A stretch of 64,000 nucleotides of DNA. It comes from Hyphomicrobiales bacterium. Lineage in GTDB: Bacteria > Pseudomonadota > Alphaproteobacteria > Rhizobiales > CAJQND01. The notes beneath the pieces are model-generated. The model did no database searches. It was not told the DNA's origin and saw only the letters and a program-made list of their open reading frames with translations. Each line of letters begins with the position of its first letter. The stretch's first letter is position 1. Shown here one piece after another: positions 24,220 through 49,266 of this stretch. The position numbers and the translations under genes were made by a program. The DNA is taken from the NCBI GenBank assembly GCA_028285595.1, contig JANQOW010000066.1:89759-153758 (forward strand), in the 5' to 3' direction.

Positions 24220-24232
24220 CCGGGGTGGTCAA

Positions 24233-25534: not shown

Positions 25535-25543
25535 GATTGCATC

Positions 25544-28866: not shown

Positions 28867-28888
28867 CAGTCTAAACTAGTTAGAGCAT

Positions 28889-29866: not shown

Positions 29867-30079
29867 GACACACATAATGACCATATGGGATCGGCCATTT
29901 GTCACACGAGTAGCGACAATAGCGAGATTTTGTGATTTATTTGCGTTAGCCGCTACCAATATGCAGGCATGTCTGCGCTCAATAAGCGCTGCAGTGCGCG
30001 GTGCGATTGCAAGACCTCCCGAATGGCGGGATGGGACACCATACCGGATGGTTGAGATTTCTGGGGAACAGCCGTTTCG

Positions 30080-32521: not shown

Positions 32522-33599
32522 TACCTCAGCTCAGGTAACGTATCTGCAGGCTGAGCTCTCAAAAGACCCCGAACCTGAGGCGTTAATCCATTTAGAAGCC
32601 ACAGCAGCCCGCACCATTGCATTCGCACCAGCCCGCGCCGAAGCCCACAGCTGGGCAGCGGAGGTCGCCTACCGCGCCCACCGCGAGCAAGAAGCACAGA
32701 AGCTCATTGACCGCGCCCTGAGCCTCAGACCCATTGACCTTCAGGCCAATTTGGCGCGCTTGCGAGAAGCCAGCGAACGCCAAGATGTGGTCGAAGTTCT
32801 GCACCGCCTTGATGTAATCGGCCAATATTGGCCAGCGAGCTTTCCGTCTGTCGCCCCAAATGCAGATCTGGCTCTGGCAACCAAGGCAGACAGCCAAGCA
32901 CTTGAGGAATTGATCGGCCGCGATCCCCCTTGGCGAGAAGCGCTCATTCAGCATTTGATGATCACCGAAGCGGGTCGAACCTTTCTCGAACATCTGTTCG
33001 TGCGAGAAGCTGAACTTGGCAAGTCCGTGGATACAGAACACCTCAACGATATCATGGAACGGTTGCTGAAAAGCGGGGCAGCAGCAAAAGCTTACCGCCT
33101 TTTCGTCCGCACCTTGAGCGAGCAAGGGCGCCGACAGCTCGGGACCATCCATAACGCTAAATTCCATCCGCGCATCGGAAACAGTCCCTTTAACTGGTCC
33201 AAACCAAACTGCCCGGCCTCTGAAACCACCCTTTCGGGGGCCAGCGAAGGTTTAATTGTCCGCTTTCTCGGGACACCGGCGCGGCACTGCGGCATTCGCC
33301 AGGTCCTGGTCTTATCGCCCTTGTCAGCAACTTGGACCGTCCGGATTTCTGCAGACAATCTGAACGTTCCCTCTGGGCTGCACTGGAAACTGTCTTGCGG
33401 AAACGGCGCCCTCTTAGCAGAGATCGACGTGCCGCCGGGCACTTATGAGCCGAGACAGTTGAGTCGCTCCTTCCAAACACCAGAGCGCCAGTGCCCCTTC
33501 CAGATCATCGAGCTCAGCACTGGCGAGAACACGTCCAGTTGGCGCAATCGCTATTCTGGAACAGTCCGTTTTCACGAGCTCTCCATATCATCTGAATAG
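32376..33599 (+). CDS. TM-anchored TPR-like protein, copy B
   Basis: Shares LNPFNT.A.V, RFLGTP, SWR..YSGT with 20859-22304; AGGGAG upstream of the ATG; overlaps wzc by 146 nt. Confidence 0.75.
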   Translation: MGRANGGKPSDAVRFLSALLIISLILLNGISALLQKDAPQIARILNPFNTSAQVTYLQAELSKDPEPEALIHLEATAARTIAFAPARAEAHSWAAEVAYRAHREQEAQKLIDRALSLRPIDLQANLARLREASERQDVVEVLHRLDVIGQYWPASFPSVAPNADLALATKADSQALEELIGRDPPWREALIQHLMITEAGRTFLEHLFVREAELGKSVDTEHLNDIMERLLKSGAAAKAYRLFVRTLSEQGRRQLGTIHNAKFHPRIGNSPFNWSKPNCPASETTLSGASEGLIVRFLGTPARHCGIRQVLVLSPLSATWTVRISADNLNVPSGLHWKLSCGNGALLAEIDVPPGTYEPRQLSRSFQTPERQCPFQIIELSTGENTSSWRNRYSGTVRFHELSISSE

Positions 33600-33608
33600 G
33601 CTCTATCC

Positions 33609-34802
33609 TTGTCCCGCGTTGCAAATACCCAAGTCTACTATCTGGGTGGGCTGCTGATCACAGCACTGATTATCGGTGGTGGAACGAACAAGGCTCTCTC
33701 CACAGACTTCCTTCTTCAGCTCCTGGTGATCCCAGCCCTACTCTGGGTCATCTATCGACATGAGTTCAAACAAACTCCTTACCTGAAGACGACGTGTCTT
33801 GTTGTCCTATTTGCAGCCTGTACCCCCTTGGCGCTGAGCTCCGCGCGAACCTTTGGGTTTGACATTGGCACGGCAGACATCGGCCGAACTCTGGACTCTG
33901 TTATATTTCTTGTTATTGGCATCGTCGTGTTTTGCTTCACGCTCCATTTGAGCGAGATGCAAAGAGCCCGGATCGCGCAGTTTCTGCTTATCGGCGTTGC
34001 CATCAACATCGCTTTTTCCATTGCCCAGTTTTCCGCACAACAAACAGCAGTTACCCTTTCGGGATTTCCTTTCAGTGTCGAAGCGGGCTTTTTTGAAGTT
34101 GGACGTCATCTGCAGGCCCTGCTGCTGGTGGCGATCCCGTTCATAATGCTGGCCTTTAAGAACACCACTTGGTGGTTTCTGTCGGTGCCGCTGGCTCTGG
34201 CCCTAGCGCTCTATCAGTTCTTGTTGGGCTCAACGGCCGGCGTTCTGGCAGGATTGGTATGTGTTATGGCCGGTCTTGGGATCGTGACCAGCAAGGCCCC
34301 CGTCCGGATCGGGGCAGCCGGGGCGGCCATACTGGGGACCGCCTGCCTCACATACTTCATCCCGGAACTCTTGACCACTGAGCTCGCGGGCGGTCAAACC
34401 TGGGCAAGACTTCAGCTTGCTGCCACGACGGCCCAGCAAGCCTATCTGCCGTTCGGCAGCGGGTATGGCACCTTCGATCTGGTTTACCCCCAGTATGGGG
34501 CACAGGACCGAACCGCCCTCGCCTTCCCTAATCACGCACACAATGACTATTTGGAGCTGGGCATTGAAGGAGGAGTGATCGTCATTGCCCTCCTTGTGGT
34601 CTATGTGGCAGGATTTCTCGCAATGATTGCCCGCGGCGGCTTAACAGATTTCCAGAAGGCCGCGGCTCTGGGTATCGCCGTTCTGCTTGTTCAGTCCTTG
34701 ATGGATTATCCTTTGCGCACCTTGGGACTCGCCATGGTCTTCTCATATCTCAACGCCATTGTATTTGCAGGCGTGTTCTCAAAACAACAGTTGACGGCGT
34801 GA
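33609..34802 (+). CDS. O-antigen ligase family protein, copy B (divergent)
   Basis: GGGT...LLQLL.IPAL, PFGSGYGTF, NHAHNDYLE, QSLMDYPLRT. Confidence 0.82.
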   Translation: MSRVANTQVYYLGGLLITALIIGGGTNKALSTDFLLQLLVIPALLWVIYRHEFKQTPYLKTTCLVVLFAACTPLALSSARTFGFDIGTADIGRTLDSVIFLVIGIVVFCFTLHLSEMQRARIAQFLLIGVAINIAFSIAQFSAQQTAVTLSGFPFSVEAGFFEVGRHLQALLLVAIPFIMLAFKNTTWWFLSVPLALALALYQFLLGSTAGVLAGLVCVMAGLGIVTSKAPVRIGAAGAAILGTACLTYFIPELLTTELAGGQTWARLQLAATTAQQAYLPFGSGYGTFDLVYPQYGAQDRTALAFPNHAHNDYLELGIEGGVIVIALLVVYVAGFLAMIARGGLTDFQKAAALGIAVLLVQSLMDYPLRTLGLAMVFSYLNAIVFAGVFSKQQLTA

Positions 34803-34892
34803 TCAAGGGATGATCGGCATTCCGATTGGTTTGCGATGATCACACAAGAGAAATGAGATGCAAAAAGCACCGGCAGGTGCACGGCGCCGCCA

Positions 34893-34904
34893 TTGTGCAG
34901 TGCA
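34893..34904 (-). promoter_or_regulatory. Putative PhaR/AniA-type box upstream of wza
   Basis: Minus strand TGCACTGCACAA; near-identical box at 36960-36971. Confidence 0.45.
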
Positions 34905-34968
34905 ATATTCGGATAGACGTTTTTCGGGCGCTGAAGTATAACAGTGTCATCAAAACGGCGCTTTTTTA

Positions 34969-35814
34969 ATGTCAGCTGAAAAGCGGAGCACGCGGCAACC
35001 GTCGGGCCAGGGATATCAGAACATGCATATCGCAGGTTTCACGAGGCAAAGATCGCGCGGGGCATTATTGGCTTGCGCGTGTGCTGCGCTGCTCGGTGCA
35101 TGTTCCGGAAGCAACAGCCTGGATCTCGGCGGCAATGTCAGTCCTGCAGGAACGGTTGCAGAGACCGGTGCCAGTGCCAACGCGCAGTCAGTAAGCTTAC
35201 GTCAGGTCAAGAGCTTACCCGCTCCCCTCAACACCAGCGGGGGCAATGACCAATTGATCTCCGCCAGCGATGTTCTTCTTGTGGAAGTTTTTGATGCCGA
35301 TCCGCCCAATATGGAAGTCCAGGTAGACAGCCGCGGTCGAGTCCGCTTGCGGGACGTGGGCGTTGTGAAAGCCGCAGGCCAAACGCCACGCCAGTTAGAA
35401 GCCAAGCTGAGGCGGCTGTATGAAGCCTGCTGTTACCGCAACCCGGATGTCTCAGTCGGTGTCAAGCAATCCATTGCCAGTCAAGTCACCGTTGATGGCG
35501 AGGTCCGGCAGCCGCGGAGTTTCCAAGTCGGCAGCGGCACCACTTTAAGCAAGATCTTTGCTCCGGCCGGAGGGTTTACAGAAATCGCCGACCCCACCAA
35601 GGTCTATGTCTACCGACAAGTGGGCGCAGAACGTCTCGTGGCTAAGTACAATGTGAAGGCTATCAGAGCCGCGCGGCGTTCTGACCCGCGAATTTACGGG
35701 GGAGATTTTGTAATGGTGTTCAGCTCTGACACCCAGGTAGCCATGCGAAACTTAAGAGAAGCTCTGGGGCTCGCCTCAAGCGCCACCCGCGCCGCGGCCA
35801 TTCCCGGCCTATAG
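34969..35814 (+). CDS. wza: Polysaccharide export lipoprotein (Wza/OPX family); alternative start ATG 35023
   Basis: Lipobox LLGAC, Poly_export (VDSRGRV...VKAAGQT...NPDVSV) and SLBB (VTVDGEV, AGGFTE) segments. Confidence 0.85.
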   Translation: MSAEKRSTRQPSGQGYQNMHIAGFTRQRSRGALLACACAALLGACSGSNSLDLGGNVSPAGTVAETGASANAQSVSLRQVKSLPAPLNTSGGNDQLISASDVLLVEVFDADPPNMEVQVDSRGRVRLRDVGVVKAAGQTPRQLEAKLRRLYEACCYRNPDVSVGVKQSIASQVTVDGEVRQPRSFQVGSGTTLSKIFAPAGGFTEIADPTKVYVYRQVGAERLVAKYNVKAIRAARRSDPRIYGGDFVMVFSSDTQVAMRNLREALGLASSATRAAAIPGL

Positions 35815-35842
35815 CCGGCACGGGCCTACAACTGCTATTCCA

Positions 35843-36616
35843 GTGCTGTTCTTTGATAAGCTTCTGACGTTTTTCATCACTCCATTGGGATTAACATTCA
35901 GCGGCTTTACCGCTGGTCTCATCTTCGGCCTACTTGGTTTAAAGCGCATACGAACGCTATTCGTCTGGGCAGCGATAGCTTTGCTCCTGGTGCTTTCCAC
36001 GCCTGTTGTTGCCAGGTCGCTGTTGGGCAACTTGGAGAGCCAGTTCCCGCAGAAGGCCATTGATCAATTTGAACCCCGCGATGTCGCCGTGTTGCTGGGC
36101 GGCGTGTTCAAGCAAATGAGGCAAGAGCCGTATCAGCGCGATGCGGGCGATGCCGTGGACCGAGTGATCTTTACGGCCCGTCTTTATAAGGCAGGCAAAG
36201 TGCGTAAAGTCATCGTCTCAGGCGGCAATCTCCCCTGGCACAGCGGTGCGCCCTCAGAAGCAAAGCTTGTGAGTCAGTTGCTGAGTGACCTAGGCGTGCC
36301 TGCCCACGACCAACTTCTTGATACCGAAAGCAGCAACACTTATGAGAATGCTTTGGCAACCAAGACCATCTGGGAGACGCAGAGCTTCAAATCCGGCTAT
36401 CTCGTCACCTCTGCCTGGCACATGCGCAGGGCTTACGCCGTTTTTCAGAAGCAAGGCTTGACCGTGGCGCCGTCAGCCACCGACCATCGGGTCGCTCAAC
36501 CGGTGTGGGAAACCATCTTGGATCTTCTGCCTACTGCCGCCGCTCTGCACATGACCTCGGTCTCGTTCCGGGAACATGTGGGCTATTGGGTCTACTCCTC
36601 GCGAGGCTGGTTGTAG
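35843..36616 (+). CDS. YdcF/ElyC (DUF218) family envelope protein
   Basis: VLLGG, VSGG, SEA, SSNTYENA, LVTSAWHMRRA, REHVG. Confidence 0.9.
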   Translation: MLFFDKLLTFFITPLGLTFSGFTAGLIFGLLGLKRIRTLFVWAAIALLLVLSTPVVARSLLGNLESQFPQKAIDQFEPRDVAVLLGGVFKQMRQEPYQRDAGDAVDRVIFTARLYKAGKVRKVIVSGGNLPWHSGAPSEAKLVSQLLSDLGVPAHDQLLDTESSNTYENALATKTIWETQSFKSGYLVTSAWHMRRAYAVFQKQGLTVAPSATDHRVAQPVWETILDLLPTAAALHMTSVSFREHVGYWVYSSRGWL

Positions 36617-36959
36617 CAGTCTCGCCTGAGTAAAGTTGGCGCGTATTGAATGGCTTTGACGTTCCCCAATTCCAACAACGCTTTCATCCATCAACACAAC
36701 GAAGCTAGAGTCCGCTACCTGCCGAGTGGCCTGTTGCAAGTGCGAGCATCACGCAGAAACACATGCGCCTTAGGGAGCTAATTCGACACCTTCGGTAGCG
36801 CTACAAACGTTTCATACAACGGCTGGGTGTCAAGCAATAGTTTACGACAACTTGTTGTAACAATTGACAATTCCAAGTCCCCTGCCTTCCAGAATTAGCC
36901 GAAAAACATTGACGATGTGAGCTTGGCGGTCTAATCATGGGGCGTAGTTGTTTTATGCT

Positions 36960-36971
36960 TGCAGTGCACAA
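36960..36971 (+). promoter_or_regulatory. Putative PhaR/AniA-type box upstream of the sqdB operon
   Basis: TGCAGTGCACAA. Confidence 0.45.
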
Positions 36972-37451
36972 TAGTAGAGTTTTGGCGTGAGTCTGATCTG
37001 GGAAGCGAGTGACCTGGAGTGCGGTAGCCATTCTGCGCTTCCGTAGCTCGAAACCAGTTTGATGCGGATTACCAACAGTGCATTGCCCAGCGCGCGGATG
37101 AACGGTCGCAAGACACTCTTTCACGTCCGCCGGATTTAGCGGGCTAACTCCTTTCCATTCATTACACATCGAACGCTGCCCCCACCGATTAGGTTTGTGG
37201 ATCAATGTGCAACACGCGCTGTTTGAGCATCTCCAACGCCGACACACGGCGGACCACTCTGCATACAAGTGAATAATGAAGACCGGAGCATAGATTCAAT
37301 TAAAATGTAAAATTCAAATATTTTTGCGAGAAGCAATCATACTCACAGTCTTGCAATCCACATTCAGAGAAAAAGCTGAAATTAATACCTTTAGATGAAG
37401 AGTAATATTTTAAAAGCTCACAGAAAATCGAGAAAGAAACGGGGATAAAAC

Positions 37452-38621
37452 ATGAAAATCGTTGTACTTGGCGGAGACGGTTTCTGCGGGTGGCCGACTT
37501 CGTTACATCTATCCAACCTTGGCCATGATGTCGTGATTGTCGACAATCTCTCTCGCCGTAACATTGATAACGAACTTGAGGTATCACCACTCACACCGAT
37601 TTCGCCGATGAGTGTGAGGTTAGAAGCCTGGAAACGGGTATCGGGTCGCGATATTCGCTTCGTCAACATTGATATTGCGGAAAACTATCACAGGTTGCTG
37701 ACGCTAATAAAAGAGTTCAAGCCGGAATGTGTTGTGCATTTTGCAGAACAAAGGGCCGCTCCATACTCCATGAAATCGTCTTGGCATAAGCGTTACACTG
37801 TCAGCAACAATTTGAATGCCACGAACAACTTGCTCGCGGCCATCGTAGAAGCGGAACGCATCGAAACTCATGTGATCCATCTCGGTACGATGGGCGTCTA
37901 CGGATACAACGATTCAGGTGTTCAGATCCCAGAAGGCTACTTGGAAGTCTATGTTCGTACCGATGACGGTGACGAGCTAAAGCAAGAAATTCTTTATCCC
38001 GCTAATCCGGGAAGTATCTACCATATGACCAAAACTCAAGATCAGTTGATGTTTGGCTTCTACAACCGCAACGACAAGCTCAGGATCACTGATCTGCACC
38101 AGGGTATTGTTTGGGGAACCCAAACCGCAGAAACTGCCATGGACGGGGACCTCATCAATCGTTTTGACTATGACGGTGACTACGGCACTGTTCTGAATCG
38201 GTTCCTAATGCAGGCAGCGATTGACTACCCCCTCACGGTGCATGGCACTGGAGGCCAGTCGCGGGCTTTCATACACATTCAAGACACCGTGCGTTGCATT
38301 CAACTTGCCGCAGAAAACCCACCCCAAACTGGAGAGCGCGTGCGAATTATCAACCAGATGACTGAAGTGTATCGGGTGCGGGACTTGGCCAAAGTCGTAT
38401 CGGATCTGACGGGCGCGGAAGTTCATCATGTCGACAATCCACGCAACGAGGCACCAGAGAACGAATTGCGGGTGGCCAATGACAGCCTACTGAGGCTAGG
38501 CCTTGAGCCCATTACGTTGAAGAACGGTCTGCTTAGTGAGATAAGTGATATCGCTAAGCGTTACTCGGACCGCTGCAACCGGAGCAAAATTCCTTGCGTG
38601 TCCTATTGGTCGAAACGTTAA
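37452..38621 (+). CDS. sqdB: UDP-sulfoquinovose synthase
   Basis: VLGGDGFCGWPT, HFAEQRAAPYSM, HLGTMGVYG, PGSIYHMTK, TDLHQGIVWG, NRFDYDGDYGTVLNRF. Confidence 0.95.
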   Translation: MKIVVLGGDGFCGWPTSLHLSNLGHDVVIVDNLSRRNIDNELEVSPLTPISPMSVRLEAWKRVSGRDIRFVNIDIAENYHRLLTLIKEFKPECVVHFAEQRAAPYSMKSSWHKRYTVSNNLNATNNLLAAIVEAERIETHVIHLGTMGVYGYNDSGVQIPEGYLEVYVRTDDGDELKQEILYPANPGSIYHMTKTQDQLMFGFYNRNDKLRITDLHQGIVWGTQTAETAMDGDLINRFDYDGDYGTVLNRFLMQAAIDYPLTVHGTGGQSRAFIHIQDTVRCIQLAAENPPQTGERVRIINQMTEVYRVRDLAKVVSDLTGAEVHHVDNPRNEAPENELRVANDSLLRLGLEPITLKNGLLSEISDIAKRYSDRCNRSKIPCVSYWSKR

Positions 38622-40035
38622 CTGCCGTCGGCACGTCGAAATTGGAGTAAGACAGACGTCAAGCATTTCGAAGCGTATTCATCCGTGGATTGAGCGGAAC
38701 CTTCGCGCTCGTGGTGGAAAGATCGCTTTGGCAAGCTTAGCGATTGCGCTATCTCGCACGGCGACGATGGTCTTGCCACTCTTTACCATTCCATGGTCAG
38801 TGAACTATCTGGGCAGCGAACGATTTGGCATGTGGATCGCCGCCACGTCCCTGATGCCGCTTTTGGCGTTTTTTGGCGGCGGCGTCGGTAACTCACTTCT
38901 CAATGCAGTCTCGCGTGCTCACGCCCAAGCAGACAATCAGAAACTGAGAGTGGTCGTTGGCACTGCCCTAGCCATGACCATGTTTCTGGCGGCGCTTGTT
39001 CTTACCATCGGCCTCATCGCCGCTTATGCTCTGCCTTGGGGCAACTTGCTTGGCCTTAAATCACCCGTGGCGCTGGCCGAGGTAAGAGCGGTGATTGCGA
39101 CTGTGATCGTAGCAATTGCCCTTGGGTTTCTGACCAATATCGGGACCAAGGTCCGCACGGGATTACAACAGATACCTGCAGTGGCCGCTCTCGAAATCTT
39201 AGGCACGATTGTAGTTCTGCCGGTCTTGCTACTGGCGATCCATCAGCAGATGTCCACAGCATGGTTGGTCGCAGCGGTTGTGCTCGTGCCACTAATTGTA
39301 AAGGGAGCGGGCTATGCGATCTTCTTCATCAACAATCCCGGATTACGCCCAGGAAGCAGTGATATAGACCCACGAGTTGCCCGAGATTTGGCCGCAGGCA
39401 GCGGTATGTTTCTGGTCACGACGATTGCCCATGGAGTGGCCGTCGCCTCCGACAATCTCTTGATTGCTAATATCATCGGCGCGCACGCGGTTTCCGATTA
39501 CTCCATTGTGTTACGCCTGTTCATGATCCCTCTTTTTGTTGCGAGTTTTGTCTATGGCGCACAGTGGCCGGTTTATGCCGAGGCTGCCGCGAAAAACGAA
39601 CTGGCATGGATCAGAAAGACATTTTTTAGAACAATCTCTATCGCGGCTCTCTCAGCGGTCATCATGTCTGCAACGATGTTTTGGTTGGTTGATGAGATTC
39701 TAGTGCTTTGGGTGGGAGACGCGGTCACGCCCAGTCCCCTTCTATGCGCGGCCGCAGCCTTTTATGCGGTCCTTGTCGTCGTCGTGCGTGGCTATCAGAA
39801 TCTGTTTTTTGCCCTGGACGAAAGAAAAACTCAGATACGCCTCAGTGTATTAATGGCCACTGTGAATGTCGCACTGACAATCTATCTGTTGCATAGGGTG
39901 GGCGCGGAAGGCGCTCTCATTGCAACGAATATCTCTTATGTGGTGTGTCTAATACTTCCGTATTCTATACTGTGTTGGATGCGGCTCTCAGCAAAACGCC
40001 CATCCGGAGTTTCGCCATTGGCCCGGCGGCCTTAG
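38545..40035 (+). CDS. wzx: Wzx-type polysaccharide flippase (true start probably after the sqdB stop)
   Basis: YLGSERFGMW, about 12 TMs, DNLLIANIIG..AVSDYSI, G.EGALIAT. Confidence 0.82.
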   Translation: MISLSVTRTAATGAKFLACPIGRNVNCRRHVEIGVRQTSSISKRIHPWIERNLRARGGKIALASLAIALSRTATMVLPLFTIPWSVNYLGSERFGMWIAATSLMPLLAFFGGGVGNSLLNAVSRAHAQADNQKLRVVVGTALAMTMFLAALVLTIGLIAAYALPWGNLLGLKSPVALAEVRAVIATVIVAIALGFLTNIGTKVRTGLQQIPAVAALEILGTIVVLPVLLLAIHQQMSTAWLVAAVVLVPLIVKGAGYAIFFINNPGLRPGSSDIDPRVARDLAAGSGMFLVTTIAHGVAVASDNLLIANIIGAHAVSDYSIVLRLFMIPLFVASFVYGAQWPVYAEAAAKNELAWIRKTFFRTISIAALSAVIMSATMFWLVDEILVLWVGDAVTPSPLLCAAAAFYAVLVVVVRGYQNLFFALDERKTQIRLSVLMATVNVALTIYLLHRVGAEGALIATNISYVVCLILPYSILCWMRLSAKRPSGVSPLARRP

Positions 40036-40063
40036 GTGTCAAGATGTTGGCTAACCGGTTAGT

Positions 40064-41416
40064 ATGACGCGATCGACGTTCAGATCCTCTCGTTGGCAAG
40101 GGCCCCGTCAGGCTTGGCCCCAACATCGTGGCTTTCAAGCCTCGCCCAGGCTACCCGCCTCGACTTACGTGATCACAACCGCGTTCCTCTTGTCTGTTGC
40201 AGGCTACCTAACGTTCGCGCCGCTGTTTCAGTTGCTCACGCCGGGGAGCGCACTGTCTTCTATCCTGTTGCGGGCAGGAGTATTACTCCTGTGCGTCGCA
40301 ATATTAATGTACAGGCATCCCAGCAACTCCCGCACCTTGCTCTTAATCACGCCATTACTTGTTTTCTTGGTGCTCTACACAATAAGGTTAAGCGACAATA
40401 TCATACTGCTCGGTTTGGAATGGAAGGTTCAACCAACGATAGCCTACAGCATGCTAATTGGCGGCGGCCTGATTCCTGCCCTTGTTCTTTCCCAATCGGT
40501 GCATCTCATTGACGAGAGAGCGCTCGTTCGGCTCCAATGGTTGTTCTGCTGTGGCTTCTTGTTATTTTTGGCCTTGAATTGGGATGCAATCCAAGCTGCT
40601 GCAGAATTTCGCAGAGCATCTCTCGAAAAACTGAATGCAATTAGTTTCGCGTGGATCACCACCTACTATGCGATCTTTTTTGCAATTCTCAGAACGAGAA
40701 CGCTTTCGGCGACAGCGGCCCGCTTTGCTCTGGTCTTGGTTCTGTTGGGACTAGCCGCTTATTCTCAAGGGCGTGGACCAGTTATCGGCACGGGCTTCGC
40801 GCTCGTCGTCTATGGACTTTGCATCCGTGGAAAGCATCGCCGATACTTGGTTTACGCGCTGATTGCTTCTACCATTGGGTTCGCGGCCCTCCCCTCGGTG
40901 CTCGGCATCAACCTAATCGATATAGCGCTTGAGCGCTTCTTGTTCGACTCGATCGACCAAGACGCGTCGGCCCAGGGGCGCCTAATGGCTTGGCGAGCTT
41001 CCTGGGCCCAATTTCTGCAAAATCCGTTATTCGGCAACATCGTGTATGAACCGGTTCTTCAAAGGTATCCTCACAACCTCTTTCTCGAATCCCTCATCTC
41101 GCTTGGAATCCTGGGCACCACTGTTCTGGGTATACACCTTTTGATTTCAGTACGCTCAGTTCTGCAACTCTTGAGATCAGAACAAAACACACTTTTGCAT
41201 CGATTTGTGGGGATCTTATTCTTCAAAGAATTGATACAAGTACAATTAAGTGGTGCGATTTGGAGTAATACAGCTTTTTGGATCTTGTCAGCCAGTGCAA
41301 TCGGGCTCGCGGTCCAGCACAGGTACGCTACGCGCCAAGGTTGGACTGCATCGAGAAGGACTGCAACAAGGCAACCCGGAAGTGCCGCAAGACCTTTCTT
41401 GAAACCGAATGTGTAG
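40064..41416 (+). CDS. Wzy polymerase / O-antigen-ligase-family protein
   Basis: About 11 TMs, SQGRGP, GRLMAW...NPLFG, YPHNLFLE. Confidence 0.8.
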   Translation: MTRSTFRSSRWQGPRQAWPQHRGFQASPRLPASTYVITTAFLLSVAGYLTFAPLFQLLTPGSALSSILLRAGVLLLCVAILMYRHPSNSRTLLLITPLLVFLVLYTIRLSDNIILLGLEWKVQPTIAYSMLIGGGLIPALVLSQSVHLIDERALVRLQWLFCCGFLLFLALNWDAIQAAAEFRRASLEKLNAISFAWITTYYAIFFAILRTRTLSATAARFALVLVLLGLAAYSQGRGPVIGTGFALVVYGLCIRGKHRRYLVYALIASTIGFAALPSVLGINLIDIALERFLFDSIDQDASAQGRLMAWRASWAQFLQNPLFGNIVYEPVLQRYPHNLFLESLISLGILGTTVLGIHLLISVRSVLQLLRSEQNTLLHRFVGILFFKELIQVQLSGAIWSNTAFWILSASAIGLAVQHRYATRQGWTASRRTATRQPGSAARPFLKPNV

Positions 41417-42566
41417 CGCCCAAAAGTCGCGAGTTATCGTGGTGCAGCCGACCGTACCCACGTACCGGGTTAGCTTCTTCGATCAAATCAGCGACAAGCT
41501 TGGACCACTGTTCAAAGTTTATGCCTCACGACAGAACATGGGCGTGCTGACAGCCAATCGTACGACCCAAGAATGGGAAGTGCCACTTGGTCAAGTCTTG
41601 CGACTGCTGCCCGGAGTGGAATGGCAATCTGGGGCACTCAGCATTCCGATCCGCCGAGGCGACATCCTGGTTGTTTGGGGGTCCGCGCGGGCACTCACCA
41701 ACATTGCTCTCCTCATAAAATGCCGCCTTAAGGGCGCGAAGACGGTTTGGTGGGGGCACTATTGGTCATCCACGAGCAAGAAATGGACCGCCAACATCCG
41801 CCTCGGGATCATGCGACTGAGCGAGTACCTTTTGTTCTACACTGACTTGGAAGTGGCGGAGTACTTGGCCTCCCGTCGCGACGGCCGCGAGCCAAATGTG
41901 TTCGCTCTGAACAATGGTATCGACACAACCAACATCGTTCACCTGAGAGCTGCATATAAGGCGGAAACCCGGTTACGCCGAGTACTTTTCATTGGACGAC
42001 TGAGCAAAAAAGCAGACCTCAGCACCCTGATACGCTCACTGTCATTGCCGGAATGCAGTGATATCGAACTTGATATCATTGGGGAAGGTGTTGAGGAAAC
42101 GCGGATGCGAGCCCTTGCGCAGGAGTTGGGTCTCGGCCAACGCATAACATGGCACGGAGGTCTGACCGACGAAGCAAGGATCGCTCCAATCGCCAATCAG
42201 TGCCAGGCCTTTGTCTATCCTGGTCCGGTTGGCTTAAGCCTCATTCACGGACTGAGTTATGGCCTTCCGGCAATTGTGCACAATGATCGCTGGAGTAATG
42301 GCCCAGAGATCGCGGCGCACGATGAAGGAACCAACGGGCTGACCTTCACTCGCGGCGATGCGGCGTCCTTGGCAGATTGTATGGCCTCACTGCTCTCCAA
42401 TCCGGAAAGACTGAACGCAATGTCGCGGGCGGCGGTGGAAACTACCCGAGAGAATTTCAATACGGAAAAGATGGCCGAGCGCTTTTGCCACGCAATCACC
42501 ACGATCCAATTAAAGGACGCAGTGCTTGATGGAAAGGACGAACGTGCGTCGGGTGGATCATCATGA
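41409..42566 (+). CDS. GT4 glycosyltransferase
   Basis: NNGID, LFIGRL, IIGEG, GLSLIHGLSYGLP. Confidence 0.88.
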   Translation: MCSAQKSRVIVVQPTVPTYRVSFFDQISDKLGPLFKVYASRQNMGVLTANRTTQEWEVPLGQVLRLLPGVEWQSGALSIPIRRGDILVVWGSARALTNIALLIKCRLKGAKTVWWGHYWSSTSKKWTANIRLGIMRLSEYLLFYTDLEVAEYLASRRDGREPNVFALNNGIDTTNIVHLRAAYKAETRLRRVLFIGRLSKKADLSTLIRSLSLPECSDIELDIIGEGVEETRMRALAQELGLGQRITWHGGLTDEARIAPIANQCQAFVYPGPVGLSLIHGLSYGLPAIVHNDRWSNGPEIAAHDEGTNGLTFTRGDAASLADCMASLLSNPERLNAMSRAAVETTRENFNTEKMAERFCHAITTIQLKDAVLDGKDERASGGSS

Positions 42567-43705
42567 GAGTGGCGATGGTCACGGCCGCGCTTTCCCACGT
42601 GGGCGGAGGGGTGTCCGCCGTTGTGGAGCAACTGTCGCGCGCGGTCGCAGATACGGGCGTCGAAGTTGCTGTTTTTGGGCCTGAAGACGAACAATGGACA
42701 TCTGGCTGCAAGGACGCATGGAACGGTGCAAAAGCATACGCGCTGCCCCGCCTTGGGCCTGCAGCCATCGGCTACATGCCGAGTATGGTAAGCCGTCTCG
42801 TTGAGTGGGCACCTGACGTTGTGCATACGCATGGAATATGGATGCACACATCCCGGTCCGTAATGCAGTGGTCACAATTAGCCGGACGACCGTATCTGGT
42901 TTCGCCACACGGAATGCTATCGTCAACCGCGTTGAAATTCTCCCCGCTCAAGAAGCAGGTGGCAACTCTGTTGTATCAAGCGCAGAGTTTTAAGAGCGCC
43001 ACGGCGCTGCATGCAACGTGCACGGCTGAGATTGAGGAAATTCGGGCTTATGGACTAAAACAGCCGATTGCCCTTTTTGCTAACGGCGTTGAAATCGCTG
43101 CATCAGCGACCAAAACGTCCTCGGAACCAACATTCCGTATCTTGTCTCTTGGTCGCATCCACCCGAAGAAGGGTCTAGATCGTCTCATCAGAGCTTGGGC
43201 TGCGTTAGAGAACGAGTTTCCCAGATGGAGCCTTGATCTCGTCGGTCCTGACGAGAATGGATATAGAGGTAAACTGGAAAACCTCGTGAGGTCCCTGGGT
43301 CTCCAGCGCGTTACAGTTCGTAATCCGGTTTTTGGCCAAGCCAAGCTGGATTGTCTTTCAGGCGCTGAGATATTCGCCCTACCGACCCTCAATGAAAACT
43401 TCGCTCTGACCGTCGCCGAGAGCCTGATGTGCGGAACGCCGGTTATCTCCACCAAAGGCGCCCCGTGGCAGGGCCTCGAAACCAACAAATGTGGCTGGTG
43501 GATCGATCATGGAGAGGCGCCGCTCACGAATGCGTTGCGGAACGCAATGACCTTATCTCCCGAGGAGCGGGCAGACATGGGCCTTCGTGGCCGCAAATGG
43601 ATTGAACAAGCGTACTCTTGGCCAACGATTGCCAGTGAGGCTTGCGCGGTATATCGCTGGCTCGCGTCACCTGGATCTATGCCAAAAAACGTCCAAATAG
43701 ATTAA
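42563..43705 (+). CDS. GT4 glycosyltransferase
   Basis: HTHGIW, SPHGML, LGRIHPKKG, ENFALTVAESL..GTPVI. Confidence 0.92.
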   Translation: MRVAMVTAALSHVGGGVSAVVEQLSRAVADTGVEVAVFGPEDEQWTSGCKDAWNGAKAYALPRLGPAAIGYMPSMVSRLVEWAPDVVHTHGIWMHTSRSVMQWSQLAGRPYLVSPHGMLSSTALKFSPLKKQVATLLYQAQSFKSATALHATCTAEIEEIRAYGLKQPIALFANGVEIAASATKTSSEPTFRILSLGRIHPKKGLDRLIRAWAALENEFPRWSLDLVGPDENGYRGKLENLVRSLGLQRVTVRNPVFGQAKLDCLSGAEIFALPTLNENFALTVAESLMCGTPVISTKGAPWQGLETNKCGWWIDHGEAPLTNALRNAMTLSPEERADMGLRGRKWIEQAYSWPTIASEACAVYRWLASPGSMPKNVQID

Positions 43706-43829
43706 GCCAGGAGACCGGTCCCGCCACTATTGCTGGGAAGGCAATCAACAGCGGCCGAATTTAAAATGCAAGCTGCTGCGATCGCCGCGCACAGCATCAC
43801 ACGTTGCGATTAGGTAGAGAGGGCACCCA

Positions 43830-44702
43830 ATGCTCAATAAAGTGCTCACAAAGATGCGTAAGGATGGGATTGGCGCGACCGTGCAGGCCGCTGTCCACAA
43901 GTCGCGCATGTGGTACAACAAGCCAAGCCTCCAAGTGACATCGACCAGCCTCCGCATCGTCAGACTGGGTAGCAGTTACGGTGGCTGGGACATATTAGAT
44001 GTCCCCTCCAGGCTCAGCGGAGCGAGTGTCGTCACCTGTGGAGCCGGCGAAGACATTACATTCGATGTCGCACTCGCCCAAATCGGCTGCCGCGTTGTGA
44101 TTGTCGATCCCACGCCGCGTGCTGTGAGACACGTAACGGAAGTGCTTTCGCGCGTAGGCGAGGCCTCTGAGGCTTCTCTGGTGAATGGCGGACGCCAAGT
44201 TCCAGAGGCGTACAATCTTTCCGCAATTGAAAGCGGACAGATCACGTTGGTAATAAAAGCGCTGTGGACCGAGGCGGGCACCGTGAAATTCTTTGAGCCC
44301 TGCAATGCGGAAAACGTCTCTCATTCAATTGTGAACATACAGAACGATCAAGATCAAAATCAGATCGACGGTTACATCGAAGTGCCTGCAACAACGCTGG
44401 AAACGTTATTGTCGGACCTAGGTATCGACAGCCTAGAATTGCTGAAGCTGGACATCGAGGGAGCTGAGATTGCGGTTTTGACAGACTTAGCGCGCGGCAA
44501 GCTTCGCCCAACGCAATTGCTCGTGGAGTTCGATGGACTGCTCTACCCGTCCAGCCAAACCACCAACGACGTTCGTCGCGTGGATGCTATTCTTCGCGGC
44601 ATTGGCTATCGATGCTATCATACGGACGGACAGGCAAACTATCTGTACGCCTTGCAAGATCAGGTTGAACGCTTGGAGCAAGAGGCTTTAACACTGTCGT
44701 AA
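43830..44702 (+). CDS. FkbM-family methyltransferase
   Basis: LGSSYGGW, GAGEDITFD, DPTP, LKLDIEGAE, QLLVEF. Confidence 0.88.
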   Translation: MLNKVLTKMRKDGIGATVQAAVHKSRMWYNKPSLQVTSTSLRIVRLGSSYGGWDILDVPSRLSGASVVTCGAGEDITFDVALAQIGCRVVIVDPTPRAVRHVTEVLSRVGEASEASLVNGGRQVPEAYNLSAIESGQITLVIKALWTEAGTVKFFEPCNAENVSHSIVNIQNDQDQNQIDGYIEVPATTLETLLSDLGIDSLELLKLDIEGAEIAVLTDLARGKLRPTQLLVEFDGLLYPSSQTTNDVRRVDAILRGIGYRCYHTDGQANYLYALQDQVERLEQEALTLS

Positions 44703-44771
44703 ACGGAGGACGTTCCTGGCACTCAATGACCTGCAAGCAGCGGCATTCTCAATTCACTTACAAAGACTCCC

Positions 44772-45341
44772 ATGCAACTTGACGTAACAGCCAATCGCGG
44801 AATGCAGAAGTGGACTGCAAGAGAGCAGTTGGGCAGGGTATTCTGGATAATCGGATACCTGGCATTTCGATGCAGCCCGCGTCAGCTATGGGGATGGCGA
44901 AACTCTATTTTGCGTATGTTCGGCGCGAGGATCGGAAAAGAGGTACACATCTATCCAAGCGTCAGGATCACAATTCCATGGAATCTCGACATTGGCGATC
45001 AGGTCGGGATCGGCGACCGTGCCATTCTCTACGCACTGGGCCCCATCACGATAAAGTCGACAGCAACTGTGTCACAAGGTGCGCACCTATGTGCTGGGTC
45101 ACATGATTACCGTGACCCGAGAATGCCGCTTTTAAAGCCGCCTATCGTGATTGGTGAAGGCGCGTGGGTGTGCGCGGACGCGTTTATTGGCCCGGGCGTC
45201 ACGATCGGCTCAAGCGCCATTGTCGGTGCGCGCGCGGTTGCAGTCAAAGATGTGCGTGCCGGTGACATTGTCGGCGGCAACCCCGCCCGCATCATTGGGA
45301 CTCGCGCACCCTCCGATGCAAACCAAACAGAGTCGCGATAA
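44772..45341 (+). CDS. wcaF: WcaF-like hexapeptide-repeat O-acetyltransferase
   Basis: LRMFGARIG, IPWNL.IG, SQGAHLCAGSHD, GGNPA. Confidence 0.88.
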   Translation: MQLDVTANRGMQKWTAREQLGRVFWIIGYLAFRCSPRQLWGWRNSILRMFGARIGKEVHIYPSVRITIPWNLDIGDQVGIGDRAILYALGPITIKSTATVSQGAHLCAGSHDYRDPRMPLLKPPIVIGEGAWVCADAFIGPGVTIGSSAIVGARAVAVKDVRAGDIVGGNPARIIGTRAPSDANQTESR

Positions 45342-45368
45342 GACATCTTCGCTGAGACGGTACCAGCT

Positions 45369-46343
45369 ATGTCAGCGGCCCATATTCACGCAATAATCTT
45401 GACCCTCAACGAAGAGCTACACATCCACCGATGCATCGAAAGCCTCCAGGGTGCATGCGCAACCATTACCGTCGTGGACAGCGGCTCTACCGACCGAACG
45501 GTGGAGATAGCGAAGGCGATGGGTGCAGAGATTCTACACAACAAATGGCTCAACTACGCGACACAGATGAATTTCGGCATTGACGCGTGCGCTGATCGCG
45601 GCGGTTGGCTGCTGAGGATCGACGCGGACGAGATCCTTGACGCCGACAGCCGGGAGACATTGGAGACTGCCGTAGAACGAGCAAGCAATGAGATCGATGG
45701 CCTGCTCGTCCAACGGCGCATCCACTTCCTCGGCCGTCGCATCAAATATGGCGGCATAGAACCAAGCTGGCAGTTGCGACTTTGGCGCAATGGTTCGGGG
45801 CGATGCGAGATCCGTTGGATGGATGAGCACATCAGGGTGGAAGGACGTGTCGAGAAGTCGGCGTTAGTATTTTCCGATATCAATCTGAACTCCCTAACTT
45901 GGTGGACGGACAAGCACAACAGTTATGCCTCACGCGAAGCCATTGATGCCCTGAACAAGACCTTCAAGTTTTTACCTGATGATCGGCTCGATCAGGGCGG
46001 CGCAAGCCCTCAAGCAAAGATAAGGCGTTTATTGAAGAATTCGGTGTACATGAAACTGCCAGGCGGAGTGCGCGCCATGGTGTACTTCCTCTATCGCTAC
46101 TTTTTACGTCTTGGGCTTCTGGATGGGCGACCAGGCTTCTACTTTCATTTGATGCAAGGCCTGTGGTACCGCACGCTTGTCGACGCAAAGATGATGGAGA
46201 TCCTCCAGCATGCCGCAAAACACGACACATCAATCACAGACGCGATCGAGGCGCGGACCGGATTCAATCCGGTCTCTGAGAAGATGAGGTCGGCCGCTTC
46301 AAAGCAAGTTACCGATCAACAGTCTCTGCCGAACCCACAGTAA
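45369..46343 (+). CDS. GT2 glycosyltransferase
   Basis: LTLNEE, VDSGSTD, IDADE, MDEH, KHNSYASREA, QGLWYR. Confidence 0.9.
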   Translation: MSAAHIHAIILTLNEELHIHRCIESLQGACATITVVDSGSTDRTVEIAKAMGAEILHNKWLNYATQMNFGIDACADRGGWLLRIDADEILDADSRETLETAVERASNEIDGLLVQRRIHFLGRRIKYGGIEPSWQLRLWRNGSGRCEIRWMDEHIRVEGRVEKSALVFSDINLNSLTWWTDKHNSYASREAIDALNKTFKFLPDDRLDQGGASPQAKIRRLLKNSVYMKLPGGVRAMVYFLYRYFLRLGLLDGRPGFYFHLMQGLWYRTLVDAKMMEILQHAAKHDTSITDAIEARTGFNPVSEKMRSAASKQVTDQQSLPNPQ

Positions 46344-46384
46344 TCAGACCGAACAACCATTAGCGAACACGTCCGCTAGATTCA

Positions 46385-47038
46385 ATGGACAAGTTCGCGT
46401 TCCCGAGAAATCTCAAAATGAGCGAAATACAAAACCTCGAGTACAATTACGATTCCGGTGAACTCAATCCATCGCATAGCTATCTATTGCCCGCGGTTGA
46501 ACGAATTGTGGTTGAAAGAAACCCGTCTCGCATCTTTGATCTGGGGTGCGGCAACGGGAGCACTGCGAGCGTGCTGACCAAACATGCTCCGGTTGATGGG
46601 GTCGATATCTCGGTGTCTGCGATCGCCCACGCCAATAAGACCTATCCGGAACTAAAGCTCGATCAAAGATCAGTGTACGAGGATCTTTCAGGGGAATATG
46701 GACAGTACCCGATGGTCGTTAGTCTGGAAGTTGTCGAACATCTCTATGATCCGCGCACCTATGCCCACAACATGTTCAGTTTGGTGGCGCCGGGCGGAGT
46801 GGCCGTGGTCTCAACCCCTTACCACGGATACATAAAGAACGTCGCGCTGGCCGTCTCAGGCAAGCTCGATAATCATTTCACTGCTTTGTGGGACGGGGGC
46901 CACATCAAGTTCTGGTCCATGAAAACGCTGAGCACACTGCTCGAGGAAGCCGGCTTCAAAGATATCGAGTTTCTGAGGGTCGGCCGGATTCCAGCCCTAG
47001 CAAAATCAATGATTGCAATCGCCCACAGAAGTGTCTGA
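46385..47038 (+). CDS. Class I SAM-dependent methyltransferase
   Basis: DLGCGNG, SLEVVEHLYDP, STPYHGY, LWDGGHIKFW. Confidence 0.9.
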   Translation: MDKFAFPRNLKMSEIQNLEYNYDSGELNPSHSYLLPAVERIVVERNPSRIFDLGCGNGSTASVLTKHAPVDGVDISVSAIAHANKTYPELKLDQRSVYEDLSGEYGQYPMVVSLEVVEHLYDPRTYAHNMFSLVAPGGVAVVSTPYHGYIKNVALAVSGKLDNHFTALWDGGHIKFWSMKTLSTLLEEAGFKDIEFLRVGRIPALAKSMIAIAHRSV

Positions 47039-47074
47039 AACACCTGTTCGGAAGTGTAAAATGGAACCTGAGCT

Positions 47075-48019
47075 TTGAACAAGATCACGCCCAAGCTGGT
47101 CTTTATCACGGGCCCTGGTCGGTCAGGGTCGACCATGTTGGATCTGATGTTGGGCGGGTCACCTTTTGTCACATCATTGGGCGAAGTTCATCGCCTCAAC
47201 AGCGACGCAATCCTGAACACAGCGCCCTGCACCTGCGGGCAGCCGATACTGTCCTGCCCATTCTGGAACGAGGTTGAAGAGCACGTTATCGCGAACCAAA
47301 GCGGCAGCGTTACCGGTCGTCCACTTGAAAATATGGACATGATGATCCGCAAGGACGACTGCAGAGGACTTTGCAACGCATTGGAGCGCATTGTTCTACT
47401 CCTAGGAAGCCAGTGGATCTACGAACAGTGGCACAGACTGCTTGCACCCGCTGGACACAAGCAAGCTCTGGTCAACAGCTTCATTTGGTATGACGCCGTT
47501 CGGGAGACTTCGGGTCGCCCGGTGGTCGTCGATTCCAGCAAGGACGCACGACGGCTCGGTTTGCTGTATCGCCATGCCCAGATGACGGGTGCGGATATCC
47601 GCCTTGTGTTTCTCGTCCGCGACGGACGGGGCGTCGCAGCGTCAGCTATGCGGCGCGAAGGCATTCCAATGGCTACCGCGGCGAAGCAATGGGCACAGGT
47701 GGTGCGCAAAACCCAGCTGACCCTTAAGTCAATCGGTACCGACAATTATCTGACGGTAAAATACGAAGACCTTTGCACCGACACCCAGAATGAACTGGAG
47801 CGAATCTGTGCGCATCTTGGAATTCCTTACAATCCGCAAATGCAGGTTTTAGACAAATCGAATGCGCACATCATCGGCGGCAACCCAATGCGCTTTCGCA
47901 AAGCAGAAACAGTGATCAAACGCGATGAAGGGTGGCGGAAGCACCTCTCGGCGAACGAGCTTAGAGAGTTCAAGGATATCGCGGGGACTGAAGCTACCCT
48001 GCTCGGCTACACTGTCTGA
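47075..48019 (+). CDS. PAPS-dependent sulfotransferase
   Basis: GPGRSGSTML (5'-PSB), DSSK, LVRDGRGVAAS (3'-PB), KYEDL, GNPMRF. Confidence 0.9.
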   Translation: MNKITPKLVFITGPGRSGSTMLDLMLGGSPFVTSLGEVHRLNSDAILNTAPCTCGQPILSCPFWNEVEEHVIANQSGSVTGRPLENMDMMIRKDDCRGLCNALERIVLLLGSQWIYEQWHRLLAPAGHKQALVNSFIWYDAVRETSGRPVVVDSSKDARRLGLLYRHAQMTGADIRLVFLVRDGRGVAASAMRREGIPMATAAKQWAQVVRKTQLTLKSIGTDNYLTVKYEDLCTDTQNELERICAHLGIPYNPQMQVLDKSNAHIIGGNPMRFRKAETVIKRDEGWRKHLSANELREFKDIAGTEATLLGYTV

Positions 48020-48025
48020 GTTTTA

Positions 48026-49189: not shown

Positions 49190-49266
49190 CCTTCCAGTAA
49201 GTTCTCGTCCAAAAGGAGTAGTCCATCCCCCACCCTAAGTTTGCTCCTCGCGTCGCCGCAAGTTGC

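Follow-up and report, generated by a model that had tools for sequence, protein, structure and literature searches.

The stretch of DNA analysed here (the window) comprises 64,000 nucleotides (nt) of contig JANQOW010000066.1 of a Hyphomicrobiales bacterium and contains sqdB, a gene for UDP-sulfoquinovose synthase, at the head of a run of genes that appear to direct the assembly of a surface polysaccharide. SqdB makes UDP-sulfoquinovose, normally for sulfoquinovosyldiacylglycerol (SQDG), the sulfolipid of photosynthetic membranes. The position of sqdB in the window suggests that sulfoquinovose may instead, or also, be present in the slime or capsule of a marine bacterium, which would be new for bacteria. 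The source genome is metagenome-assembled, with a completeness of 99.36% and an estimated contamination of 2.17%, and the runs from which the organism is known carry the label coral metagenome.

sqdB and the genes that follow it

sqdB is the first of 12 co-directional plus-strand genes, which are separated by gaps of -8 to 124 nt; the run ends at a convergent NUDIX gene at 50596. The leader and the genes of the run are the following:

37269-37451 (no strand): AT-rich leader of 183 nt, likely promoter region of the second operon of the locus, with GGGGA 8 nt before the sqdB ATG
37452-38621 (+): sqdB, predicted UDP-sulfoquinovose synthase of 389 amino acids (aa) (PDB match to SQD1, E 3e-88; sole copy in the genome; G+C 50.0%)
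38545-40035 (+): wzx, predicted MOP-family flippase, with a start site inside the end of sqdB or immediately after it
40064-41416 (+): Wzy_C-family membrane protein B, candidate repeat-unit polymerase (PF04932 E 7.8e-12, 45.7 bits at a cut-off of 31.7)
41409-42566 (+): GT4 glycosyltransferase a (PF00534 E 2.5e-21; 25-27% identical to SqdX, over parts only)
42563-43705 (+): GT4 glycosyltransferase b, HpsP-like (PF13579 E 3.8e-23, PF00534 E 4.9e-21; NF038295 133 bits, below cut-off)
43830-44702 (+): FkbM-family methyltransferase (PF05050 E 1.3e-11; TIGR01444 48.2 bits, above the cut-off of 37.7)
44772-45341 (+): WcaF-like hexapeptide O-acetyltransferase (NF007797 186.9 bits at a cut-off of 192)
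45369-46343 (+): GT2 glycosyltransferase b (PF00535 E 6.4e-15)
46385-47038 (+): S-adenosylmethionine-dependent methyltransferase (PF13489 E 2e-20)
47075-48019 (+): sulfotransferase of the type dependent on 3'-phosphoadenosine 5'-phosphosulfate (PAPS) (PF13469 E 3.7e-19)
48026-49189 (+): GT2_4/GT92-like glycosyltransferase (PF13704 E 1.5e-9; PF01697 E 0.001)
49267-50511 (+): 414-aa protein of unknown function, the last of the run (no Pfam or NCBIfam match)

The preliminary description of this DNA had called sqdB at 37452, and the call is borne out by a full-length match to Arabidopsis SQD1 and by intact motifs. The protein aligns to the SQD1 chains 1qrr_A and 1i24_A (E 3e-88, 299.5 bits, query residues 2-387 on chain residues 3-383) with an identity of about 50%, as read off the alignment, and the next structural family, UDP-glucuronate decarboxylase, follows at E 3e-10 only. 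SqdB carries PF01370 (E 1.9e-21) and has the extended short-chain dehydrogenase/reductase (SDR) fold with an N-terminal glycine-rich NAD site. Its motifs GGDGFCGW, GTMG, and YHMTK align to GGDGYCGW, GTMG, and YHLSK of SQD1; the Thr of GTMG and the YHxxK motif (Tyr-His-x-x-Lys) are the catalytic residues reported for the SQD1 structure. The NCBI equivalog model NF041015 is matched end to end (337.7 bits, E 8.5e-101), below its cut-off of 575 bits. The best non-self matches among 5.8 billion proteins are 73-79% identical, come from Alpha- and Gammaproteobacteria, and, where named, are called UDP-sulfoquinovose synthase or NAD-dependent epimerase. The window protein is also 66-70% identical to SqdB of loci L042, L075, and L124, where sqdX of the cyanobacterial type adjoins sqdB. 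This identity to sqdX-linked SqdB proteins, together with the SQD1 match, argues that the window protein is a real UDP-sulfoquinovose synthase.

The junction between sqdB and wzx is tight. In the genome's own gene call, wzx starts at ATG 38767 and encodes a 422-aa product, with the sqdB end at 38621. When Wzx is aligned with four homologues, however, conserved N-terminal residues, including the invariant R56, lie upstream of both ATG 38767 and TTG 38728, and GTG 38545, which creates an overlap of 77 nt with sqdB, is the sole canonical in-frame start far enough upstream to include them. No terminator-like site was found by a scan of the plus strand of the junction, and the folding of the junction is at the level of shuffled sequences (z 0.02). 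Since wzx overlaps sqdB or nearly adjoins it, no terminator is seen at the junction, and an AT-rich leader precedes sqdB, the gene appears to open a transcription unit of 13 kb, whose co-transcription we infer; a look-up of RNA runs for the stretch listed none. The promoter and terminator scan returned no more sites than shuffled sequences did, and no sigma-70-like site passed at the sqdB leader. Exact plus-strand copies of an RfaH ops-like motif (an 8-mer) are absent from the leaders, with counts near chance. A Pho-box-like direct repeat was found neither near sqdB nor in the PlcP-Agt locus (see below) that was meant as a positive control. A minus-strand open reading frame (ORF) upstream of sqdB (36801-37268) has no family match.

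Direct Pfam matches of the wzx product are weak (MurJ E 2.3e-5, 23.6 bits at a cut-off of 27.4; MatE E 2e-4). Its homologues among the 5.8 billion proteins number five, are 26-53% identical to it, and carry PF01943 and/or PF01554 in all five cases; two of them (P0122 and P0123) are 52-53% identical to the window protein, and one is named O-antigen/teichoic acid export protein. The product of 38545-40035 can thus be assigned as a Wzx-type flippase, and a rare one. The Wzy_C family includes, in addition to polymerases, WaaL ligases and PglL-type O-oligosaccharyltransferases, and for this reason the assignment of 40064-41416 as a polymerase is plausible and not firmer than that. The preliminary description, which had a flippase, a polymerase, and glycosyltransferases following sqdB, was thus right about the flippase and the glycosyltransferases, and its polymerase is the Wzy_C protein. 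It had also found no recognisable sqdC or sqdD beside sqdB; this holds for the annotated neighbours, among which there is no sqdX either, although no search with an SqdC reference was made. The last protein of the run (49267-50511) falls into hypothetical clusters of the Atlas at 0.98, with a glycosyl-hydrolase lead at 0.85 only.

The polysaccharide locus and its variability

A second group of co-directional genes, upstream of sqdB, supplies functions that the sqdB operon lacks:

23689-24219 (+): RfaH/UpxY-like transcription antiterminator, head of the operon (Pfam NusG E 2.7e-17; RfaH model TIGR01955 112.8 bits at a cut-off of 144.5; UpxY 67.7 bits)
24233-25534 (+): initiating polyprenyl-phosphate hexose-1-phosphate transferase (PGT) of the WcaJ/EPS_sugtrans type (Bac_transf E 1.1e-61; TIGR03025 292.1 bits at a cut-off of 295.55)
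25544-27013 (+): ManC, mannose-1-phosphate guanylyltransferase / mannose-6-phosphate isomerase (NTP_transferase E 2.6e-49, MannoseP_isomer E 3.5e-52)
27010-28059 (+): Gmd, GDP-mannose 4,6-dehydratase (PF16363 E 5.3e-158)
28117-28866 (+): small GT2 glycosyltransferase, WcaE-like (PF00535 E 8e-23; TIGR04009 63 bits, far below cut-off)
28889-29866 (+): Fcl, GDP-L-fucose synthase (NF047922 504.3 bits, above the cut-off of 500)
30080-32521 (+): Wzc-type co-polymerase (PCP-2a) with a tyrosine autokinase domain (Wzz, AAA_31; TIGR01007 155.2 bits at a cut-off of 108; TIGR01005 264 bits)
32376-33599 (+): TPR-like protein between wzc and a Wzy_C gene (no Pfam match at 1e-5; TPR_2 E 0.006; hypothetical clusters only in the Atlas)
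33609-34802 (+): Wzy_C-family membrane protein A, polymerase or ligase (PF04932 E 1.3e-7, 32.0 bits at a cut-off of 31.7)
34969-35814 (+): Wza-type outer-membrane polysaccharide export (OPX) protein (Poly_export E 4.1e-14, SLBB E 1.9e-12)
35843-36616 (+): DUF218/ElyC-like envelope protein, last gene of the upstream operon (PF02698 E 2.1e-28; NF007794 66 bits, below cut-off)

The upstream operon contains PGT, Wzc, and Wza and is without Wzx, and the sqdB operon contains Wzx and a Wzy_C protein and is without PGT or an exporter. This complementary gene content means that the two operons need each other and would form one complete Wzx/Wzy pathway. The window therefore appears to hold a complete Wzx/Wzy-dependent capsule or exopolysaccharide (EPS) locus of about 27 kb, made of two co-directional operons, with sqdB heading the second, serotype-specific part. 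The locus is similar to loci of the group-1-capsule/colanic-acid type in having a WcaJ-type PGT, ManC-Gmd-Fcl, a WcaE-like GT2, a WcaF-like acetyltransferase, Wzx, a candidate Wzy, Wzc, and Wza. It differs from the colanic-acid locus by the addition of sqdB, a sulfotransferase, and two methyltransferases, and its predicted product would carry both sulfonate and sulfate, which colanic acid does not.

Three Wzy_C-family genes are present in the window, at 19545-20852 (-), 33609-34802 (+), and 40064-41416 (+). A paralogue of the TPR-like protein is encoded at 20859-22304 (-), and each of the two paralogues adjoins a Wzy_C gene. G002, the closest same-genus genome, also has one TPR-like protein, located between Wzc and Wzy, and both window copies match one and the same stretch of G002 with 29-34% identity, so that this protein looks like an unnamed, recurrent part of such loci. 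Upstream of the polysaccharide region, the window encodes an RTX/cadherin/G8-domain protein (1361 aa, 4541-8626) and an RTX metalloprotease-like protein (827 aa, 8998-11481).

A Logan contig of 35,576 nt spans window positions 36600-41500 with no differences; it may stem from the source sample and so represents a second assembler and not a second sample. In a second sample of the same study (run X2, window positions 36871-41500), six short contigs match the minus-strand ORF, sqdB, wzx, and the Wzy_C gene with identities of 95-99%, and a close variant of the sqdB locus thus exists elsewhere.

The G+C content is 59.2% in the genome, 54.2% in the upstream operon (23689-36616), and 53.3% in the sqdB operon (37452-50511), with sqdB itself at 50.0% and the 5th percentile of 1.2-kb windows at 53.0%. 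In G002, six genes downstream of the locus (SucC to NUDIX) are syntenic and 77-98% identical, and the contig breaks off some 360 nt beyond the NUDIX gene; a different contig carries the G002 versions of Wza, Wzc, the TPR protein, and Wzy, with identities of just 33-50%, and sqdB was not found in G002. In this closest relative, the locus is replaced by a different one. Among 40 relatives, sqdB was found in six, in none of them beside a Wzx; the two copies from the same genus, with identities of 68% and 58%, have other contexts (UDP-glucose dehydrogenase, SDR epimerases, unknowns). The low G+C content, the replacement in G002, and the patchy presence of sqdB in relatives all indicate that the locus is a variable surface-polysaccharide island, with sqdB as part of its variable content. 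A second, decayed sqdB, 53% identical and with one TAG and one TAA inside, lies beside a DDE transposase in another genome of the same genus, G004 (locus L094, G004:C2).

The destination of sulfoquinovose

In O-antigen and capsule loci, the sugar-nucleotide genes within the locus as a rule make polymer-specific sugars. Judged by gene context alone, UDP-sulfoquinovose is probably a dedicated precursor of the methylated, acetylated, and sulfated polysaccharide of the locus. This use is the best reading because sqdB is first in its operon and tightly joined to wzx, sqdB shares the low G+C of the island, the locus is replaced in the closest relative, and sqdB recurs in glycan loci of other phyla. 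The preliminary description had proposed that sulfoquinovose is built into an exopolysaccharide or a glycoprotein glycan; gene context favours this proposal over others, but a lipid route stays alongside it, and the same UDP-sulfoquinovose pool may also feed a lipid.

The recurrence of sqdB in glycan loci comes from 159 loci around relatives of the window SqdB (80 from genomes and 79 from metagenomes). The neighbour scan covered all but 18 of the 80 genome loci, and tblastn and hidden Markov model (HMM) scans covered these 18. True sqdX, defined by at least 47% identity to cyanobacterial SqdX, lies beside sqdB in 17 of the 159 loci. Glycan-assembly contexts surround sqdB in 12 pre-selected other loci (Pfam, 79 neighbour proteins), of which the following are examples:

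L008 (Mariprofundus bin), all on one strand: methyltransferases, Wzx, GT2, FkbM, sqdB, GT2, GT4, sulfotransferase, aminotransferase, CapD
L060: sqdB, then directly Wzx
L077: Wzx, sqdB, GHL15, sulfotransferase
L131: PGT, NusG-like, sqdB, PAPS-reductase/SDR fusion, Wzx, acetyltransferase
L154: Wzy_C, Wzc, sqdB, methyltransferase, ABC-2 transporter
L011: Wza, sqdB, PGT
L082: PGT, sqdB, CysH

With home-made HMMs, at least one hallmark of glycan assembly (Wzx, PGT, Wzc, Wza, or Wzy_C) was found within the flanks covered in at least 18 of the 159 loci and in 15 of the 104 loci of 10 kb or longer. Eight of the 18 gave the HMM training sequences, so that they match by construction, and were checked with Pfam; the hallmarks of the other ten rest on the HMMs. 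Any enrichment of hallmarks over background is a rough judgement made without a control gene.

The proposed pathway would run as follows. In the cytoplasm, SqdB would make UDP-sulfoquinovose from UDP-glucose and sulfite, and one of the five glycosyltransferases of the locus (two GT4 and three GT2) would add the sulfosugar to a repeat unit linked to undecaprenyl diphosphate and started by the initiating transferase at 24233. The repeat unit would also receive mannose and/or fucose via ManC, Gmd, and Fcl and would be O-methylated, O-acetylated, and O-sulfated. Wzx at 38545 would then flip the unit, a Wzy_C protein would polymerise it, and Wzc and Wza would export the product, a strongly anionic polymer with both C-S-bonded sulfonate and O-sulfate. 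The suggestion of the preliminary description that a new sulfoquinovosyl-transferase is to be found among the GT2 and GT4 enzymes holds only on the condition that the glycan reading is right, and no result singles one of them out. Similarity to SqdX does not single out either GT4 enzyme of the operon, as their identity to SqdX is only 22-27%, in alignments that mostly span a portion of the enzyme.

Several observations weigh against a dedicated glycan role, beginning with the fact that the organism is known solely as a metagenome-assembled genome. A tblastn search with 19 locus proteins found homologues of Wzx and Wzy_C protein B in none of the 159 sqdB loci, and in 400 genomes of the class there are two Wzx homologues, neither of them linked to sqdB. 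The exact arrangement of the sqdB operon is thus conserved nowhere among the loci and genomes examined; a metagenome scan with Wzx confirmed no relative. In a FastTree tree built from 152 SqdB rows, rows with a glycan context are spread over the tree (11 rows, 11 changes), whereas the SqdX label is clustered (17 rows, 5 changes against a shuffled mean of 16.4). On the side of a glycan role, the window SqdB lies outside the clade (support 98) that holds 16 of the 17 SqdX-linked rows and inside an 84-row group (support 90) with eight of the 11 glycan-context rows and one SqdX row. Within this tree it belongs to a group of seven (support 97) together with three Rhodospirillales/Reyranella loci that have an SDR epimerase after sqdB; the epimerase gene follows sqdB directly in three of the six other rows of this subclade (L032, L038, and L065). 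The window SqdB is of the ordinary type and does not belong to a special glycan branch, and the scatter of the glycan-context rows means that ordinary SqdB genes were recruited many times for glycan use, if this use is real.

The remaining observations that count against a glycan role concern the lipid route. It is possible that SqdB feeds only an unlinked diacylglycerol glycosyltransferase, which would make SQDG for phosphate sparing or photosynthesis, and that sqdB came to lie before wzx by chance when the island was assembled. A lipid role does not depend on linkage, since sqdB and sqdX are unlinked in some cyanobacteria (Synechocystis and Microcystis, according to PMC13436972), and some Caulobacteria and Rhizobiaceae are reported to contain SQDG (bioRxiv 10.1101/2022.08.18.504050). 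In the genome of the window, a cyanobacterial SqdX query (from a locus with sqdX after sqdB) retrieves three SqdX/Agt-like GT4 enzymes at E about 1e-45; they are 33-38% identical to the query and 32-35% identical to true SqdX proteins. Because true SqdX proteins share 48-49% identity across phyla, these three are not orthologues of SqdX, and the genome has no SqdX orthologue. The GT8 domain (PF01501) that would indicate SqdD has no match in the 99.36%-complete genome (the control matched in five of 14 genomes), and SqdD is therefore absent. The preliminary description had advised looking for a second sqdB with sqdCD elsewhere, and the outcome favours it: the genome has one sqdB, no GT8/SqdD, and no SqdX orthologue.

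One of the three GT4 enzymes could nevertheless provide a lipid route. The C69 GT4 (G000:C69:126637-127845) has both signature motifs of Agt/GTcp, GRVAxEKN and FPSxTDTFG as given in PMC8231724, in the forms GRVAVEKN at 243 and FPSQTDTFG at 305, and its gene directly follows that of an LpxH/PlcP-like metallophosphoesterase. It thus resembles the PlcP-Agt/GTcp remodelling operon of marine heterotrophs described in the same source, where GTcp is said to have a broad donor range (UDP-Glc, UDP-Gal, and UDP-GlcA); UDP-sulfoquinovose is not among the donors named in the portion of that source available to us. Orthologues of the C69 type, 46-48% identical, lie directly upstream of sqdB in L034 and L171. 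If a sulfolipid is made, the C69 enzyme is most likely the acceptor enzyme. The C69 operon is, however, unlinked to sqdB in this genome, and enzymes of its type are present in 23 of the 40 relatives, namely in 20 of the 34 without sqdB and in just three of the six with it; since the sqdB-less relatives carry it so often, the C69 GT4 appears to be an ordinary phosphate-sparing glycolipid synthase and not a partner of sqdB.

The other two GT4 enzymes are paralogues on C55 (G000:C55:77697-78881 and C55:131944-133254; loci L089 and L091) that are 53% identical to each other. Their type is present in none of the 40 relatives, and its distribution therefore says nothing about a lipid role. Each of them adjoins an LptF/G-like permease, and one also lies near an MsbA-like ABC exporter and an FkbM-radical-SAM fusion; possibly, the C55 loci are a strain-specific module for glycolipid synthesis and export.

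Photosynthesis provides the last argument for a lipid: in Rhodobacter, sulfolipid serves the reaction-centre complex (PMC11346425), and pufL and pufM are present in the genome (G000:C16:140882-142544). They were found in none of the eight same-family genomes searched and represent either a gained photosynthesis gene cluster or a mis-binned contig. As an argument for sulfolipid, phototrophy was rejected: puf is present here, yet among the 40 relatives none of the five puf-positive ones has sqdB and none of the six sqdB-positive ones has puf. Considering, in addition, that the sqdB-wzx junction is overlapping or near-contiguous and that the composition of sqdB is that of the island and not that of the genome, we regard a lipid as the only destination of sulfoquinovose as unlikely.

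A destination in another glycoconjugate, such as a lipopolysaccharide O-antigen or a protein O-glycan, or an alteration of the sulfosugar (methylation, epimerisation) before transfer, seems to us quite improbable. One of the three Wzy_C genes of the window could encode a WaaL- or PglL-type transferase, and archaeal N-glycans with sulfoquinovose and sulfofucose are known (PMC4388408, PMC12421959), but Wza and the kinase-domain Wzc point to capsule or EPS export. The two methyltransferases of the operon and the SDR epimerase after sqdB in half of the other subclade rows would fit an altered sulfosugar, but no SDR epimerase lies beside sqdB here, and the other SDR proteins of the locus are Gmd and Fcl (above equivalog cut-off) only. 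Finally, it is barely conceivable that sqdB has no function here, whether as a silent passenger, as a gene in decay, or as an artefact of assembly. The source is a metagenome bin with the contamination given above, and in this genus, as the decayed copy of G004 illustrates, sqdB genes come and go. The frame, however, is open and keeps all motifs, the second assembler returned the same 4.9 kb with no differences, pieces of sqdB, wzx, and the Wzy_C gene with 95-99% identity are present in the second sample, and the contig flank is syntenic with a same-genus genome.

Several known systems come close to the window locus. The SqdB/SQD1 plus SqdX/SQD2 route to SQDG in cyanobacteria and plants starts with an enzyme of the same family and motifs, but the window locus has no SqdX orthologue beside it or elsewhere in the genome, and its neighbours are glycan-assembly and not lipid genes. 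The sqdBDC plus sqdA route of Rhodobacter and Sinorhizobium (bioRxiv 10.1101/2022.08.18.504050) has the same first enzyme and occurs in the same bacterial class, but the genome of the window is without GT8/SqdD, SqdD being the component that this comparison covers, as opposed to SqdC or SqdA. The nearest functional precedent for the proposed use is Agl3 of Sulfolobus acidocaldarius, a UDP-sulfoquinovose synthase feeding the N-glycan (PMC4388408): its sulfosugar is destined for a surface glycan built on a lipid carrier and not for a membrane lipid. This system is archaeal, however, and serves protein N-glycosylation and not a Wzx/Wzy/Wza/Wzc polymer.

Among the matches listed for open-access papers and preprints, none describes sulfoquinovose in a bacterial polysaccharide, the matches dealing with archaeal N-glycans and catabolism instead, and none of the literature matches listed describes a polysaccharide sulfoquinovosyl-transferase. 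Current reviews treat sulfoquinovose as the headgroup of phototroph sulfolipid, and the words 'polysaccharide' and 'glycoprotein' are absent from the text of a 2026 review of bacterial sulfoquinovose cycling (PMC13436972). If the glycan reading is true, sulfoglycolytic bacteria of reefs, mats, and sediments would have a second supply of sulfoquinovose, there would be a class of anionic polymers that sulfatases cannot strip of their charge, and a new family of sulfoquinovosyl-transferases would await discovery. The locus is a compact test case, in which a single sqdB, five transferase candidates, and all genes for assembly fit into 27 kb.

In its fullest form, the proposal is that this coral-metagenome alphaproteobacterium builds a Wzx/Wzy capsule or EPS with a repeat unit containing sulfoquinovose, O-sulfate, O-methyl, O-acetyl, and fucose or mannose; that one GT4 or GT2 of the locus is a polysaccharide sulfoquinovosyl-transferase; that sulfite comes from organosulfonates of host or algal origin through Xsc (sulfoacetaldehyde acetyltransferase); and that the roughly one in nine related sqdB loci with glycan hallmarks represent a widespread, overlooked pool of sulfoquinovose outside phototroph lipids. 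We put the chances of this whole combination at about even.

Sulfite supply and companions of sqdB elsewhere

PAPS/APS reductase (PF01507; CysH; APS, adenosine 5'-phosphosulfate) has no match in the 99.4%-complete genome, with the control matched in 13 of 14 genomes. Two APS kinases are encoded elsewhere in the genome (C149:12904-13356 and C60:70735-71193), consistent with the sulfotransferase of the locus. Xsc (C31:3-1253) passes its equivalog cut-off (691 against 676 bits), although its gene is cut by the contig end. The usual route of sulfate assimilation may be missing from this organism, and its sulfite may come from organosulfonates. Given that no CysH was found and Xsc is present, organosulfonate breakdown may also be the source of sulfite for SqdB.

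Other sqdB loci have companions of their own. In many Alphaproteobacteria, among them those with the nearest relatives of the window SqdB, sqdB is directly followed by a gene for an SDR 'epimerase' (L009, L010, L032, L038, L065, L095 (G005), and L176). The product may act as a UDP-sulfoquinovose 4-epimerase and yield UDP-sulfofucose; according to PMC12421959, the biosynthetic route to sulfofucose is not known. In six of 166 loci, homologues of the small GT2 (28117) that share 24-40% identity with it are encoded no more than 5 kb away from sqdB and on its strand, which is a lead only, as GT2 genes are common there. In L050 and L078, sqdB is directly flanked on either side by large genes for TPR-sulfotransferase fusions, and in L056 it is directly preceded by such a gene; in L098 (G014:C1) sqdB is followed by a 588-aa unknown and then by a 616-aa processive-type GT2. 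In two loci with glycan context, a PAPS-reductase domain comes right after sqdB, fused to a second SDR domain in L131 (4532-6649, 705 aa) and as a separate CysH in L082 (11297-12052), and in both this looks like a dedicated sulfite supply for SqdB.

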